64,000 nt of DNA from Alphaproteobacteria bacterium (GCA_031549385.1 JAVBPW010000005.1:1-64000); one strand, 5' to 3'; counted from the first letter of the stretch, positions 8,434 through 61,803 are shown. Notes: a model not told the origin generated them from the sequence alone. Made by a program: numbers and translations.

Positions 8434-8471
8434 AATTTGACATTTGGTTTTTGTTTAGGTAGTTTAATCTT

Positions 8472-8668
8472 AGTTTTAAGGTTATATTTATTAGTTCTTT
8501 GACATGTGGGTCTGTAAATTGTTAAATACATAAACTGGTGATTTCACTGGTGGCGAAACGAGCCTCAACATTAGAATGGAGTCCCCTCTAGTAGCTTAAG
8601 ATGGTATTTAGCTGCAAAGTTTACAGGAAAACCAAAATTACTGGCTGCTCGAAAGAGTGGCCTTTTTT
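8472..8668 (+). ncRNA. Candidate structured non-coding RNA of unknown family
   Basis: Promoter TTGACA(8437)-N17-TAGTTT(8460); long closing helix 8512-8529/8604-8626 enclosing three small hairpins; terminator 8643-8668. Confidence 0.55.
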
Positions 8669-8748
8669 AATAAATTATGAAAATAATTGACAAAAGCTAA
8701 TTAATTTTTTAATGTTATTGATTATATCACCTTTAAAAATTAAACAAT

Positions 8749-8868
8749 ATGGAATGGATTGTTAGTGAACAAGCAGGATTAATAGTTGCTGCAGCTATTG
8801 GAGTAGTATTTTTGGCTATTTTGTTTTGGCGGGCTTGGGTTAAAAGTAAGCCTCATAAAACAAAATAA
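8749..8868 (+). CDS. 39-aa single-pass membrane peptide (not in ORF track)
   Basis: MEWIVSEQAGLIVAAAIGVVFLAILFWRAWVKSKPHKTK; own TTGACA at 8687 and terminator 8896-8922. Confidence 0.65.
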   Translation: MEWIVSEQAGLIVAAAIGVVFLAILFWRAWVKSKPHKTK

Positions 8869-9012
8869 ACAAAAAATACAGAATTTTTATATATTTAGCT
8901 CATCTTTTGATGGGCTATTTTTGTATTTTTAAAGATAAATGTTGACAAATTAATAGAAGTAAGCTATTTATTAGTGTAAGTATGAATTGTTAAATCTTAA
9001 AAAATTAAAAAT

Positions 9013-9549
9013 ATGAAAATCTGTTATATGGTTTATTATAAAGAACAGAAAATAATGATTTCTGTTGCTAAAGTACTGTTAGTAATTGGGCTGGTAGCAG
9101 TTTTCCCGCTGACGATATTTTACATTTTGGGAGGTGGCCGAATTCGGTTTGAATTTAATAAAATTAAACCAGCTAAAATGGACTGCGGAATTCTTGATGC
9201 AGAAAATGTGTATCAAGAGGAGTTGAAAAACGTTGAAATCGTTTCCTATGAACAGATTGATAATGACCATTATTATTTAATCTTAAAAAATGGAGATAAA
9301 ATAATAATGTGCATGAAACAAACTTTTAGGGTTAAGCCGGAAACAGTTATTGAGTATGTGAAGTATCAAAAACTTTTGAAGTGGGATATAAACTATGCCG
9401 AGTTTGCCGAGCAGAAAGTTTTAACTCAGATACTTTTGCATATTGAAATAGAAAAGTTTTCAACAGTTGAAAAAAAGAAAGTTGGAGGTAAAACTGTGGT
9501 TCGCCGCAAAACCTATGACAAAAAATATTTTAAACAGAGTGGCTCTTAG
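9013..9549 (+). CDS. Orphan protein with N-terminal TM segment (cassette)
   Basis: 178-aa ORF; TTGACA at 8942; stop codon lies in the loop of hairpin 9536-9561. Confidence 0.7.
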   Translation: MKICYMVYYKEQKIMISVAKVLLVIGLVAVFPLTIFYILGGGRIRFEFNKIKPAKMDCGILDAENVYQEELKNVEIVSYEQIDNDHYYLILKNGDKIIMCMKQTFRVKPETVIEYVKYQKLLKWDINYAEFAEQKVLTQILLHIEIEKFSTVEKKKVGGKTVVRRKTYDKKYFKQSGS

Positions 9550-9569
9550 CCACTCTTTTTTGTTTTAGA

Positions 9570-9770
9570 GATTTGTATGCGATATTCGTTGAAGATTTGA
9601 AAAATGCGATGTCCTCAGTCCTTTGGACTTGCGGGCTCCTTATTTGTATGCGATGTACTTTCAGAAGATTTATTAAATCTTCTGATCCGTTGTCTTCGTG
9701 ACAAAGCAAAGCTTTTACTACGACGGCGAACTGCCTCGTAAGAACTTCGGGTTATAAATTGTATAACTTT
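9570..9770. repeat. Cluster of short palindromic (REP-like) hairpins downstream of tRNA-Ser
   Basis: ATTTGTATGCGAT twice (9571, 9642); hairpin TCAGAAGATTTA/TAAATCTTCTGA; CTTCG...CTACG-type hairpins. Confidence 0.45.
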
Positions 9771-9809
9771 CGTTATCAAAAAAACGTCTGAAATCAGACG
9801 TTTTTATGA

Positions 9810-9898
9810 TGGCGGAGGGTATGCGATTCGAACGCATGGACCAGGAAATCCAGTCACAGATTAGCAATCTGTTGTATTAACCACTCTACCAACCCTCC
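9810..9898 (-). tRNA. tRNA-Ser(GCT)
   Basis: Reverse complement GGAGGGTTGGTAGAGTGGTT...ACAGA-TTGCTAA-TCTGT, long variable arm, GTTCGAATC, encoded CCA; terminator 9778-9805. Confidence 0.95.
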
Positions 9899-59675: not shown

Positions 59676-59782
59676 TCTTACTTTCTCCTGTTTTTTTATC
59701 CTATATTTTGTAGCATATTAAAAAGCTTTCGGCAAGCAAAAAATTGTTGTTTTTTAGTCTTTTTTATAATATAATGATGTTT

Positions 59783-60391
59783 ATGAAGAGGGGAGTTTTT
59801 AGTTTTTGTTTTTTGATTGTAAGTGCTTATATTTCAAGCTCTTTTGCACAAAAAATTGTTGACAATGAAAAAGATTGTAATTTGATGCTACGTAGAAAAT
59901 TTTTGCAGTTTTGTGATAATGGTCAGGAATTGAATAATTACAAAGAATGTTTAGAATCAGAGTATGAACAAATGTCTAAATATTTAAATATAGAATCAGA
60001 AATGCCAGAGTGTATTAATGAAGCTAAGACAGAATATAATGCATTTAAAGTTCAACAAAAAGAATTGCAGAATAATCAGAGTCAAAATTCAAGTGAGTGT
60101 ATAAAATCAAAACAAAATTTAAGTGCTGTTGAATATTGTGTTAGGTATGCTAAATCACTTGGTGAATTTAGAATGAGAAGTTATTCTAATAGATATAAAA
60201 TTGATAATATGTGTGGTGAAAAAGTTATTGGAAATAACTCTGTGAGAAATGCTATATATAATTTAGTTTTTCAAAAAAATATAATTGTGATTGATCCATC
60301 ATTAATTATGCTTACTGAAGATTATAATAAAGGTATGGATAAAATTTATAATGAGTATTTGGCAAAAACCAAAATGTTTTGTGGGGAATAA
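59783..60391 (+). CDS. Secreted Cys-containing hypothetical protein
   Basis: Signal peptide MKRG...SSFA; eight Cys in the mature part. Confidence 0.7.
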   Translation: MKRGVFSFCFLIVSAYISSSFAQKIVDNEKDCNLMLRRKFLQFCDNGQELNNYKECLESEYEQMSKYLNIESEMPECINEAKTEYNAFKVQQKELQNNQSQNSSECIKSKQNLSAVEYCVRYAKSLGEFRMRSYSNRYKIDNMCGEKVIGNNSVRNAIYNLVFQKNIIVIDPSLIMLTEDYNKGMDKIYNEYLAKTKMFCGE

Positions 60392-60524
60392 TTTTGAAAA
60401 TTTGTTGCGAAGCAAAAGAATTGAAAATTATTCTTGTTTTTATGAATTTTGTTAGGAATTTTTGTTTCTAGTTTTTAATCAAATTTTATGATATAATTAG
60501 CAAAATTATTTAAAGGAGTATCTT

Positions 60525-61259
60525 ATGTTTTTTACAGAAAAACCAGCAATTTCTATTATAGTTACTGTATATAATGATGCAAAACATTTAGAAGGTTGTA
60601 TCGAATCTATACTTGCTCAAACTTTTACCAGATTTGAAGTTATTATTGTTGATGATGGATCAACTGATAATAGTTTGAAAATATGCAAAGATTATGAATT
60701 ACAAGATAGAAGAATAAGAGTTTATCATCAAAAACATCAAGGAGCTATTGTTGCTCGTAATTTTGCTATTACTATTGCTAAAGGGGAATATATATTTCCT
60801 ATGTATGGTGATGATAAATTAAACGAAAGTGCTTTGTTTAAAATGTATGAAGCAATTCAAAACCAAGCGGCTGATGTGGTTTATTCTAATACTGAAACTT
60901 TTGATAACAGTAATGATATTATTGAAATGTCATTACCTGATAGAAATAACCCTTCAGGATGTGATATTAGTGTTTGCTCTGCGCTTTATAAAAAGGGAGA
61001 TTGGAAGAATTATCAAGGTTATGACCCTAATGTTGATTCTGATTTAAATCATTGGGAGTTTTGGCTTAACTTTATTGAAGATAGCAAGAAAATTGTAAAA
61101 CTTGATGATGCTTTGGTTTATTACAGAGAAAAAACAACTAATGTTTCTCCTGAAGATAAAAAACGAGTATTTGAATATTCTAAAAATAAACATAAGAAGC
61201 TTTATAATGCCCCTTTTGGAATGTTGCTTGATAGTGTTAAGAAATTATTCAAATTGTAA
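60525..61259 (+). CDS. Glycosyltransferase family 2
   Basis: ISIIVTVYN, IIVDDGSTD, GAIVARN; the DXD region is altered (YGDD). Confidence 0.88.
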   Translation: MFFTEKPAISIIVTVYNDAKHLEGCIESILAQTFTRFEVIIVDDGSTDNSLKICKDYELQDRRIRVYHQKHQGAIVARNFAITIAKGEYIFPMYGDDKLNESALFKMYEAIQNQAADVVYSNTETFDNSNDIIEMSLPDRNNPSGCDISVCSALYKKGDWKNYQGYDPNVDSDLNHWEFWLNFIEDSKKIVKLDDALVYYREKTTNVSPEDKKRVFEYSKNKHKKLYNAPFGMLLDSVKKLFKL

Positions 61260-61284
61260 TAAAAAAGGTGGCAAAAGCCACCTT
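61260..61284. terminator. Bidirectional terminator, direct-repeat copy A
   Basis: TAAAAAAGGTGGC-AAAA-GCCACCTT. Confidence 0.8.
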
Positions 61285-61295
61285 TTGTTTTTTAT

Positions 61296-61712
61296 TTACC
61301 AGTCGATACATCGTCTTCCGGTTTTAACTTCTTTCCACTGACTATCATTTCCATATCCTTCAATAATATAACCAATGAGGAGTCCGTTGAAGTATAATTC
61401 AGTGTGGCGAAAATCTCCTAAAGCTGGATTTTTCTTTATTTCAACATTTCCTGTTTTCAGTTCGTCCATATAAAGAAGGGGAATTTTGGAAAGAGTGCCA
61501 CTGACAAGCCAACGCATTACAAAAGGCGCATCAATAAACCCGATTTTTTCTTTTTCTTCTGATAATAATTCAGCAGGTGCCAATTTTCCTTTGGGAGTAA
61601 ATTTGATTTTTAAGAACTTTTTGAGTTCTTTATTCCAGACTATACCAAGGTCTTCACCTGATTTGCTCATAAAATCATAAGCAATGCTTGTTTGGGGAAT
61701 TTTTGAATCCAT
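61296..61712 (-). CDS. Orphan protein (cassette)
   Basis: 138-aa ORF preceded by TTGACA-N17-TAATTT and AAACTTAAAAATCAA (61732-61718). Confidence 0.75.
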   Translation of the reverse strand: MDSKIPQTSIAYDFMSKSGEDLGIVWNKELKKFLKIKFTPKGKLAPAELLSEEKEKIGFIDAPFVMRWLVSGTLSKIPLLYMDELKTGNVEIKKNPALGDFRHTELYFNGLLIGYIIEGYGNDSQWKEVKTGRRCIDW

Positions 61713-61778
61713 AAAATTTGATTTTTAAGTTTTAGAATGTTTTTAAATTAATATAAGGGTTTAATTTTGTCAAGGAAT

Positions 61779-61803
61779 TAAAAAAGGTGGCGTTAGCCAC
61801 CTT
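61779..61803 (-). terminator. rplI terminator, direct-repeat copy B
   Basis: TAAAAAAGGTGGC-GTTA-GCCACCTT. Confidence 0.8.

Follow-up and report, generated by a model that had tools for sequence, protein, structure and literature searches.

In Legionella and Coxiella, PmrA and CpxR boxes precede Dot/Icm effector genes; these boxes are DNA sites that overlap the promoter or lie upstream of it, with response regulators as their readers. Signals for translation other than the Shine-Dalgarno (SD) sequence include S1-dependent leaders, Bacteroidota-type leaders and the epsilon element of phage T7 gene 10, and these act on the majority or the whole of an organism's genes, or on just one gene of a phage. 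RfaH, which works with the ops element, needs a NusG paralogue. Regulons of AbcR1 and AbcR2, sibling base-pairing small RNAs (sRNAs), have been described in Alphaproteobacteria (PMC5461406, PMC8844928), and putative mobile promoters, similar upstream regions found before non-homologous genes of one genome, have also been reported (PMC3575422).

We analysed a 64-kb stretch of DNA (the window) from a reduced alphaproteobacterial genome of 931 kb and 30% GC, in which orphan genes share a leader sequence that we call the tag. The 11-mer AAACTTAAAAA occurs exactly nine times in the window compared with 1.14 expected, with at least nine copies in 0 of 100 shuffles, and 54 times genome-wide compared with 23 for the reversed word; no excess of the exact word over its reverse was found in 20 relatives. 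Four of the nine exact window sites (4093, 45725, 48164 and 48374) are intragenic, non-leader copies. A longer 14-mer, with 2 mismatches allowed, was weakly enriched in the window (18 vs 9.3), and two of 100 shuffles reached 18. A weight matrix was trained on the genome's own sites, and a gene was counted as tagged if it scored at least 10 within positions -40 to -6. By this measure the tag lies 11-37 nt ahead of the ATG in 93 of the genome's 982 genes (~9.5%, or ~90 mRNAs); a control window of the same size gave 6. Several matrix matches adjoining terminators are plain A-runs. The consensus is aTCAAAC(T/C)TAAAAAAT, and the tag is strictly strand-specific, oriented with its gene, and neither palindromic nor repeated. 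In 47 of the 93 tagged genes the distance from the start of its AAAC core to the ATG is 18-21 nt. Spacing this sharp would be explained at least as well if the ribosome or a protein read the tag directly as if an sRNA did. Across the upstream regions compared, positional information exceeded 0.5 bit at tag positions -2 to +8 only, and no sequence conservation was found between or outside three short boxes, TTGACA, the -10 and the tag. The tagged units of the window are as follows, with matrix scores where given.

13845-14670, plus strand: two-gene unit with -35 TTGACA at 13845-13850 and -10 TAGTTT at 13868-13873 (N17 between the boxes, N21 to the tag).
13895-13905, plus strand: tag of gene 1 of this unit (score 20.3), before ORF 13914-14312 (132 aa).
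14304-14314, plus strand: tag variant of gene 2 (score 10.7), promoter-less and overlapping the stop of ORF 13914-14312, before ORF 14324-14626 (100 aa).
14651-14670, plus strand: terminator ending the two-gene unit.
14679-15286, plus strand: single-gene unit with -35 TTGACA at 14679-14684, -10 TAAGTT at 14702-14707, tag at 14729-14739, ORF 14748-15260 (170 aa) and terminator at 15267-15286.
17730-18423, plus strand: single-gene unit with -35 TGGACA at 17730-17735, -10 TATAAA at 17753-17758 (by eye), tag at 17780-17790, ORF 17798-18406 (202 aa) and terminator at 18405-18423.
53776-53209, minus strand: single-gene unit with -35 TTGACA at 53776-53771, -10 TAATTT at 53753-53748 (N17, N21), tag at 53726-53716 (score 18.0) and ORF 53706-53209 (165 aa).
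61773-61296, minus strand: single-gene unit with -35 TTGACA at 61773-61768, -10 TAATTT at 61750-61745, tag at 61732-61722, 12 nt past the -10, and ORF 61712-61296 (138 aa).
8942-9556, plus strand: degenerate-tag unit with -35 TTGACA at 8942-8947 (by eye), tag variant AAATCTTAAAA at 8992-9002 (score 12.3), ORF 9013-9549 (178 aa) and terminator at 9536-9556.
30426-31104, plus strand: degenerate-tag unit with -35 at 30426-30431, -10 TAGTTT at 30449-30454, tag variant at 30491-30501 (score 14.4), ORF 30509-30814 (101 aa) and then an overlapping ORF to 31104.
49354-50235, plus strand: degenerate-tag unit with -35 at 49354-49359, -10 TAGTTT at 49376-49381, tag variant at 49428-49438 (score 11.4) and ORF 49441-50235 (264 aa).

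The initial annotation had placed the motif at 13895(+), 14729(+), 17780(+), 53726(-) and 61732(-), and all five sites are there, each before an ORF. These exact leader tags stand 7-9 nt (end of the 11-mer to ATG) before ORFs of 132-202 aa; the gap from the closing TCA to the ATG, claimed as 3-5 nt, measured 4-6 nt. Among the degenerate copies it listed, those at 8992, 14304, 30491 and 49428 held up (matrix 10.7-14.4) and the one at 8729 was unconvincing. The variant at 49428-49438 lies just 2 nt from the ATG, and its unit is the weakest member of the group. Proposed terminators were borne out at 9536-9556, 14651-14670, 15267-15286, 16622-16663 and 18405-18423, and terminator-like sites in the window number 17, compared with 2.7 in shuffles. 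In line with expression of the tagged units, RNA-library contigs with 0 mismatches span 13963-14633 in the two-gene unit and 14735-15209 in the unit that follows it. No Pfam family above cut-off was found for any of 10 window ORFs. A search of 100 other genomes from this order matched neither the 170-aa ORF (14748-15260) nor the 202-aa ORF (17798-18406); the sole match of the former among 1.84 billion representatives, and of the latter among 5.8 billion proteins, was itself. The minus-strand unit at 53776-53209 has an MscS-like gene and rpsA as neighbours, and that at 61773-61296 is flanked by a glycosyltransferase gene on one side and, on the other, by three small genes with homologues in the sister genus.

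Genome-wide, the tag marks short genes, and 83 of the 93 tagged proteins were singletons by blastp and phmmer, in keeping with the unrelated cargo first noticed in the window. A homologue in the sister genus was found for 8 of the 93 tagged genes compared with 462 of the 889 others; the suggested enrichment before ORFans over core genes is thus present, and the statement that the motif is absent before housekeeping genes was nearly right, failing at those eight. Third-codon GC (GC3) was 0.28 in tagged genes and 0.17 in the core. We designate the genome under study G000, the sister genus G001 and another related genus G002; tagged genes also had the higher GC3 in G001 (0.267 vs 0.232; p 0.013, or 0.06 after size matching) and G002 (0.252 vs 0.213, p 0.0003). 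Because they are short, lineage-specific orphans of atypical codon composition, the tagged genes give the impression of accessory genes gained or exchanged as a set. The core AAAC(C/T)TA is common to tag variants of the two related genera, and its flanks differ between genera. The G001 variant, TTAAACCTATTATTAAT, precedes 35 genes compared with 5 in the control window; for the G002 variant, aaTTTAAACCTAaaa, the 8-mer TTAAACCT gave 26 vs 0. The promoter-plus-core pattern was counted 41 vs 6 times in G000 and 24 vs 3 times in G002. Such genome-specific variants in two genera fit a cis signal that evolves with its reader. Among metagenome contigs the best LigA relative reaches 46% identity, and no close relative was found in the collections searched.

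We found a predicted sigma70-type promoter, defined by -35 and -10 hexamers 16-18 nt apart, before 55 of the 93 tagged genes, with an exact TTGACA in 42 and a 17-nt spacer in 36. For the -35 boxes at 13845, 14679, 17730 and 53776, the spacing agrees exactly with the 50-nt offset described in the initial annotation (-35, N17, -10, N21, tag). However, among the 55 genes with a promoter the gap from -10 to tag is bimodal, with 15 genes at 6-10 nt and 32 at 17-24 nt, so the 50-nt spacing is a tendency and not a genome-wide rule; in the window the gap is 12 nt at 61732, 36 nt at 30491 and 46 nt at 49428. Seventeen tagged genes begin <70 nt behind a gene on the same strand, and 12 of these 17 are promoter-less with an unchanged distance from tag to ATG. 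The tag is tied to the start codon, not to the promoter, and the fixed promoter/leader module originally envisaged finds no support here, nor is the sequence between the boxes conserved. The leaders do lack an SD sequence, as had been seen: even a loose one is absent in 87 of the 93. Among conserved genes, 186 of 462 (~40%) also lack a loose SD. Since SD-independent initiation is already common in this genome, the tag appears to be the mark of a class and not a translational necessity.

We propose, with a probability of roughly 45%, that the tag is an RNA-level leader mark of a post-transcriptional regulon and that sRNAs are its most likely reader. The tag, its positional rules, its link to orphans and its variants in two related genera are observations; from them we infer that the tag acts in RNA and, more weakly, that the candidate sRNAs are expressed and pair with it. 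The regulon would consist of SD-less orphan mRNAs, mostly with near-consensus sigma70 promoters and their own terminators, that have the leader tag in common. One or more trans-encoded sRNAs would carry the complement UAGGUUUGA in an unpaired stretch directly 5' of the sRNA's terminator hairpin, and by pairing with the tag where ribosomes load they would control all members of the class at once, with repression as the simplest mode. Two candidate sRNAs were predicted in G000 (C7:353772-353863 and C7:382454-382519), each with promoter, anti-tag and terminator; both promoters fit TTGAC(A/T)-N17-TAnnnT, a T-run accompanies each hairpin, and the longest ORF in either unit measures 0 codons. The 9-mer anti-tag occurs twice in 2,408 nt of small promoter-terminator units in G000, where 0.015 were expected. 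Genome-specific 9-mer anti-tags lie no more than 25 nt before terminators in two, two and four cases in G000, G001 and G002, compared with means of 0.13, 0.16 and 0.08 for permuted words, of which 4, 9 and 1 of 400 reached the observed count, and in a predicted duplex matrix the G001 and G002 candidates favour leaders of their own genome; because the G001 and G002 candidates were picked by eye via genome-specific words, this matrix as well as the 9-mer test involves some circularity and is in part post hoc. The 7-mer TA(A/G)GTTT near G000 terminators showed no excess over control words (5 vs 4-8), and a search for small units under strict criteria recovered no candidate of G001 or G002. Predicted folds of the candidates leave the anti-tag unpaired or pair it weakly. 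The G000 candidate has a G opposite the U that predominates in the tag, which makes a wobble and not a Watson-Crick pair; at the C/U position of the tag, G would pair with either form. The second G000 candidate is predicted to pair weakly with leaders (-7.9 vs -7.3 kcal/mol for controls), and its opposite strand might represent a relic leader followed by an ORF of ~8 codons (by eye). The candidates showed no synteny between genomes and no Rfam family match.

Alternatively, the tag may stand in for the SD sequence and be read directly by the 30S subunit, for example through protein S1, or by a dedicated RNA-binding protein, with no sRNA involved. We regard this as a possible, though less probable, explanation. 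It would account for the sharp spacing to the ATG, for the tag at promoter-less internal genes, for the depletion of SD-like triplets in tagged genes (7/93 vs ~20-26% in control windows) and for a core kept in three genera, and a full six-domain S1 is encoded by rpsA right beside a tagged unit. However, the ~40% of conserved genes that manage without an SD also do so without the tag, which is therefore dispensable for initiation in general. The 16S rRNA tail, GATCACCTCCTTTC, is of the ordinary CCTCC type, and neither TAGGTTT nor TAAGTTT occurs anywhere in the 16S gene, which argues against an SD-type pairing with rRNA. The flanks of the core vary between genera although the ribosome is conserved, and no candidate protein was identified.

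The tag could instead be a DNA operator, a transcription-factor site at or just past the start of strong promoters that defines a classical accessory or effector regulon. Box-defined effector regulons are known from Legionella and Coxiella, positions +1 to ~+25 are typical of repressors, and the tag is associated with promoters: a recognisable promoter precedes 55/93 tagged genes compared with 118/889 others, and a separate count of consensus promoters gave 35/66 compared with 50/916. Yet 12 tagged genes have the tag with no promoter at all. Where a promoter was recognised the tag never overlaps the -10 or -35, and it starts at least 6 nt past the -10 in 54 of 55 cases, which puts it inside the predicted transcript. 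Its strict gene orientation, its lack of symmetry or repetition, and a distance fixed to the ATG while that to the promoter has two modes further speak against an operator, which we consider improbable.

A similarly improbable explanation is that promoter, tag, ORF and terminator are moved or captured as a unit, as in a mobile promoter or an integron-like system. This would explain why foreign-looking orphans carry the same module, and the deviant codon composition of the tagged genes keeps a mobile origin of the cargo alive. Autonomous units mostly stand singly between core genes (76 runs of tagged genes: 64 singletons, nine pairs, one triple and two runs of four), a few promoter-plus-tag modules lack an ORF, and in the sister genus, a distant comparison for empty sites or swapped cargo, the slot of the unit at 61773-61296, after an rplI-like gene, holds an unrelated 130-aa ORF with its own tag variant. 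Against this, nothing is conserved outside the three short boxes, and the 3' ends of units are ordinary terminator hairpins, mutually unrelated, with no conserved recombination site evident at the boundaries. No tyrosine recombinase (PF00589) match lies in the window, where the initial annotation had seen no integrase; the genome has four, scattered and none beside an array. Promoter-less tags inside operons and genome-specific tag variants also fit such a unit poorly. Of the three readings that the initial annotation offered, a regulon or translation-initiation signal with an RNA-binding reader fits best, and the gene-capture or cassette system is not supported by these results. Compositional chance, by which an A-rich word would recur in leaders simply rich in A and T, at a genomic GC of 30%, as the barely enriched 14-mer and the A-run matches might suggest, is highly implausible given the counts of the exact 11-mer in window and genome, the 20 relatives without such excess, the 93 vs 6 matrix matches by position and the strong links to orphan status and GC3.

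In a broader and distinctly more speculative form of the sRNA reading, which we think unlikely but conceivable, the tag would be a private expression code for horizontally exchanged orphans in two families of reduced gut alphaproteobacteria. Every newcomer would be driven by a consensus promoter and bear the universal SD-less tag, and a few master sRNAs complementary to the tag would keep the entire foreign gene pool under a single switch. Xenogeneic genes would then be under RNA-based control, in which tag and anti-tag drift together between genera. Bolder still, an undescribed gene-capture system might have the promoter-tag module as its portable element. Should the tag serve ~10% of genes as a common handle, it would offer a sequence-only route to the accessory or host-interaction genes of uncultured reduced symbionts, and orphan genes otherwise uninterpretable would become selectable as a set. 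As a post-transcriptional regulon it would also be of unusual size and clarity, and it would operate with no Hfq, CsrA or ProQ; none of these was found in genomes G000-G003 or G005, which also speaks against the sRNA reading. The tag touches on the origin of ORFans and on how newly acquired genes are expressed and restrained, and its variants in three genera amount to a natural covariation experiment for finding the reader.

Compared with the systems described above, the tag resembles the ops element in that it is short, has an orientation and sits in the transcribed leader of SD-poor genes gained by horizontal transfer; unlike RfaH, no specialised NusG paralogue accompanies it, with one PF02357 match per genome in 40 of 41 genomes, including G000, G001 and G002. 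The reported mobile promoters likewise concern non-homologous genes of one genome with similar upstream regions, but there the similarity is extended, whereas here it comprises TTGACA, the -10 and the tag only. Like known non-SD signals, the tag is an A-rich, SD-less element at a fixed short distance before the AUG; unlike them, it marks one class of genes while other SD-less genes go without. With PmrA and CpxR boxes it shares the flagging of unrelated, lineage-specific genes by a short motif in a host-associated bacterium with a type IV secretion system (VirB11 is encoded in the window), but the tag is a strand-specific element past the start site, it keeps to the ATG, and promoter-less genes have it too. 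AbcR-type regulons differ in that the target here is a long, near-invariant tag at a fixed AUG distance and not SD-like, that it covers ~10% of all genes, orphans as opposed to a functional class such as transporters, and that here no Hfq was found and the sRNAs are predicted only. The likeness to AbcR-type regulons lies elsewhere: several sRNAs sharing a short, conserved seed would pair near the ribosome-binding region and control many mRNAs as a class, and the candidates occur in multiple or tandem copies (G002 L065:1100-1700; G000 C7:382300-383000), as the AbcR sRNAs do.

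The short leader motif AAACTTAAAAA, which we call the tag, is present in nine copies in the window, where 1.14 would be expected and none of 100 shuffles reached nine. Five copies, at the sites given in the initial annotation, lie 7–9 nt upstream of the ATG of the ORFs at 13914, 14748, 17798, 53706(−) and 61712(−), and the remaining four are intragenic. Across the whole genome, whose assembly comprises 931 kb in 8 contigs at 30% GC and 97% completeness, with the window as positions 1–64000 of contig C2, the 11-mer is present in 54 copies, compared with 23 of the reversed word. 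Scored with a weight matrix that was derived from the sites (threshold 10, positions −40 to −6), 93 genes are tagged versus 6 in an equal window farther upstream (genes from a simple ORF caller, n = 984, 89% coding). The scan that the initial annotation had proposed thus found the motif enriched, and the tag is real, statistically strong and more widespread than was first seen. In 20 relatives, the 11-mer was no commoner than a control word, and among the matches listed in a literature search for the AAACTTAAAAA string, which did not extend to supplements, none concerned bacterial leaders. RpsA matched genome contigs at 49–56% identity, in records labelled Alphaproteobacteria in almost all cases, the best identity of LigA to metagenome contigs was 46%, and a sequencing-run listing labels the possible source as invertebrate gut metagenome.

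The position of the tag is fixed relative to the start codon: its AAAC core begins 18–21 nt upstream of the ATG in 47 of the 93 genes. The usual ribosome-binding site of this genome is AAAGGAG, and the absence of a Shine–Dalgarno (SD) sequence from tagged leaders held genome-wide, with 87/93 lacking even a loose one. A recognisable promoter precedes 55/93 tagged genes versus 118/889 others, with an exact TTGACA in 42 of the 55, and the tag falls inside the promoter in one doubtful case only. Four window sites show precisely the 50-nt spacing described initially (−35, N17, −10, N21, tag), but at the fifth a 12-nt gap replaces the 21, and genome-wide the −10-to-tag gap is bimodal, at 6–10 nt (15 genes) or 17–24 nt (32 genes), so that the transcript would either start at the tag or carry it about 14 nt inside. 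Seventeen tagged genes begin within 70 nt of the end of another gene on their strand, and 12 of the 17 lack a promoter; at the window ORF at 14324, which is operon-internal, the tag overlaps the stop codon of the preceding gene. These promoter-less, operon-internal tags indicate that the tag belongs to the start codon and not to the promoter. A consensus −35 starts only 33–38 nt upstream of the ATG at the window gene 62509–62940(−) and about nine other genes, for which putative leaderless mRNAs are expected; the window gene, third in the cluster 61823–62940(−), is probably rpsF from gene order.

The tagged genes are mostly orphans. Their median length is 147 aa, 83/93 of the proteins are singletons by blastp and phmmer, and tblastn found a homologue in the sister genus, the only other genus in the family (663 kb fetched, 84% complete), for 8/93 tagged versus 462/889 other genes. 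The predicted enrichment before orphans relative to core genes was therefore borne out; the claim that the motif spares housekeeping genes stands insofar as only 8/93 are conserved, but a few ordinary genes are tagged (KdsA-like and Dcd-like, recognised by eye from N-termini only). None of the 10 small window ORFs had a Pfam match above cut-off. Two of the window ORFs had no match among 100 other genomes of the order; for one of them, the sole match among 5.8 billion proteins was the ORF product itself, and the same held for the other in a full HMMER read of 1.84 billion representatives. Structure models of ORFs 17798–18406 and 53209–53706 (mean pLDDT 39.0 and 39.4) were too poor for fold searches. 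Paralogy was rejected as the source of the common leaders, with only five pairs among the 93 proteins. A membrane segment was predicted in 15% of tagged versus 36% of untagged genes, under a first, word-based tag definition (54 SD-less genes).

Tagged genes are also compositionally foreign at third codon positions. Their GC3 is 0.283, whereas conserved genes have 0.167 and the remaining non-conserved genes 0.173 (p = 3e-31), and codons ending in G, GAG and CAG among them, reach 0.18 versus 0.07 in the core; at positions 1 and 2, tagged and other genes have the same GC. Most genuine high-GC3 genes of the genome are tagged genes. The 109 most conserved genes have a GC3 of 0.16, so high expression does not account for the shift. 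In the same study, contigs assembled from an RNA library span 13963–14633 and 14735–15209 without a mismatch, and this cover falls on the tagged ORFs 13914–14626 and 14748–15260; such contigs report presence in the library, not transcript ends or levels, and the lack of cover in the bin 17683–18103, the first part of ORF 17798–18406, proves nothing.

The window also encodes RarA, PrfA, FabI, LigA, RpsA, an MscS-like channel, glycosyltransferases and VirB11. From its VirB11 gene (31128–32102) and a weak CdsG-like match, the run of minus-strand genes at 23369–32102 looks like a type IV secretion cluster, of which the tagged orphans could putatively be substrates.

Variants of the tag are found in related genera. 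The sister genus uses TTAAACCTATTATTAAT in the same architecture (35 genes versus 5 in the control window), and in 400 kb fetched from a genus of another family aaTTTAAACCTAaaa lies upstream of small ORFs; there the 8-mer TTAAACCT gave 26 versus 0 in the control window, with the core starting mostly 19–22 nt from the ATG. That both genera carry variants implies that the signal predates the genus; its core AAAC(C/T)TA is stable between genera while the flanks drift. The combination TTGACA-N28–48-AAACYTA was counted 41 versus 6 in control in the genome under study and 24 versus 3 in the other-family genus, and stayed close to control in the remaining 59 sampled genomes, the sister genus among them (7 versus 6). 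GC3 of tagged genes is raised in the sister genus (0.267 versus 0.232, p = 0.013; size-matched p = 0.06) and in the other-family genus (0.252 versus 0.213, p = 0.0003).

The initial annotation had interpreted these units as a shared portable module with rapidly diverging cargo, possibly a gene-capture or cassette system. Foreign-looking cargo and the autonomy and scatter of the units would fit, and terminators do adjoin them as described: the window has 17 terminator-like sites versus 2.7 in shuffles, and private terminators flank the units. Unrelated cargo is likewise upheld by the singletons. Yet nothing is conserved beyond the three boxes, the unit ends are unrelated hairpins, the tag also occurs without the promoter part, and recombinases are few in the genome and located away from the units. 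These tests thus do not support a gene-capture cassette system. Promoter-like sequence with a tag and no ORF behind it is present at C2:117225(+) and C7:347807(−), possibly ‘empty modules’ left by lost cargo. A bidirectional terminator of 19–20 bp at window 16622–16663 is common to the convergent ORF 16405–16644 and glycosyltransferase gene 16652–17614(−).

How might the tag be read? About 40% of conserved genes are likewise SD-less yet untagged, which makes the tag a class mark and not a general ribosome-binding site. Four of its features favour a function in RNA close to the ribosome-loading site over a DNA operator: it is strand-specific, is obligatorily part of the transcript, does not depend on the promoter and keeps a fixed distance to the ATG. 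Pairing with 16S rRNA was rejected, as the genome under study, which this comparison covers (the gene is unassembled in the other two genera), has an ordinary 16S tail and no tag complement in its 16S rRNA. An alternative sigma factor was rejected because the −10 for an AAAC-type −35 would sit in the coding region, where nothing is conserved. The genome has three sigma70-family genes, one of them of ECF type (183 aa); its operon (C7:233620–234890) also encodes its partner, a probable membrane-bound anti-sigma of 84 aa, as well as a protein of 149 aa, and the sigma has a sister-genus homologue at 30% identity. An RfaH-like factor was rejected, a NusG paralogue being absent, and Hfq, CsrA and ProQ were sought in five genomes and not found.

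A more likely reader would be small RNAs complementary to the tag: several predicted small transcription units, the most promising lead, have its reverse complement (the anti-tag) immediately 5′ of a terminator.

Candidate small RNAs bearing anti-tags (G000, genome under study; G001, sister genus; G002, genus of another family)
G000 C7:353772–353863: candidate small RNA; two anti-tags, the second within a ~18-nt complement of the consensus leader
G000 C7:382454–382519: candidate small RNA; one anti-tag copy
G001 L015 near 9229: candidate of similar arrangement, picked by eye
G001 L039 near 13612: candidate of similar arrangement, picked by eye
G002 L058 near 16181: candidate of similar arrangement, picked by eye
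G002 L065:1100–1700: candidate tandem cluster of four small units, each with (T)AGGTTTAA before a terminator, picked by eye

In all three genera the anti-tag flank agrees with the leader variant of the candidate's own genome. The 21 strict promoter-to-terminator units of the genome under study (2,408 nt) hold two 9-mer anti-tags versus 0.015 expected. Genome-specific 9-mers, a word choice partly post hoc, occur at most 25 nt before RNAfold-defined terminators 2, 2 and 4 times in G000, G001 and G002, against averages of 0.13, 0.16 and 0.08 for permuted words; a 7-mer version of this test was negative. The anti-tag is mostly unpaired in predicted folds, and by duplex energy the G001 and G002 candidates favour cognate leaders. 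Two units of the tandem cluster have in common a long hairpin with a conserved loop, with one fold z-score of −4.6. The strict unit finder recovered no G001 or G002 candidates, candidates show no synteny between genomes, and one G000 candidate, which could be a relic leader on the opposite strand, pairs weakly with leaders.

Between the minus-strand genes 381544–382290 and 383528–384640, four tiny promoter-to-terminator units lie in series (C7:382300–383000), one bearing an anti-tag. Another (382815–382986) has a sense tag, then ATG-AAA-TAA, then a hairpin, and might act as a decoy or represent a module that has been emptied. At window 8437–8662(+), TTGACA-N17-TAGTTT and a strong terminator (8643–8662) bound a predicted transcript of ~190 nt whose ORFs are all at most 29 codons (fold z-score −1.3). 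The unit is possibly a new small RNA, and a stretch of about 10 nt at its 5′ end is complementary to the variant tag of 14304. A separate promoter-to-terminator unit at 8722–8917(+) has a 39-codon ORF, by eye from the nucleotides a hydrophobic single span.

Neither the candidate small RNAs nor the small unit at window 8472–8662 matched an Rfam family; the tag itself is not an ordinary annotation feature, and it matches none of the families described. The findings are explained most simply by a leader tag, specific to the lineage, that would place acquired orphan genes in one post-transcriptional regulon, with complementary small RNAs as the leading putative reader.
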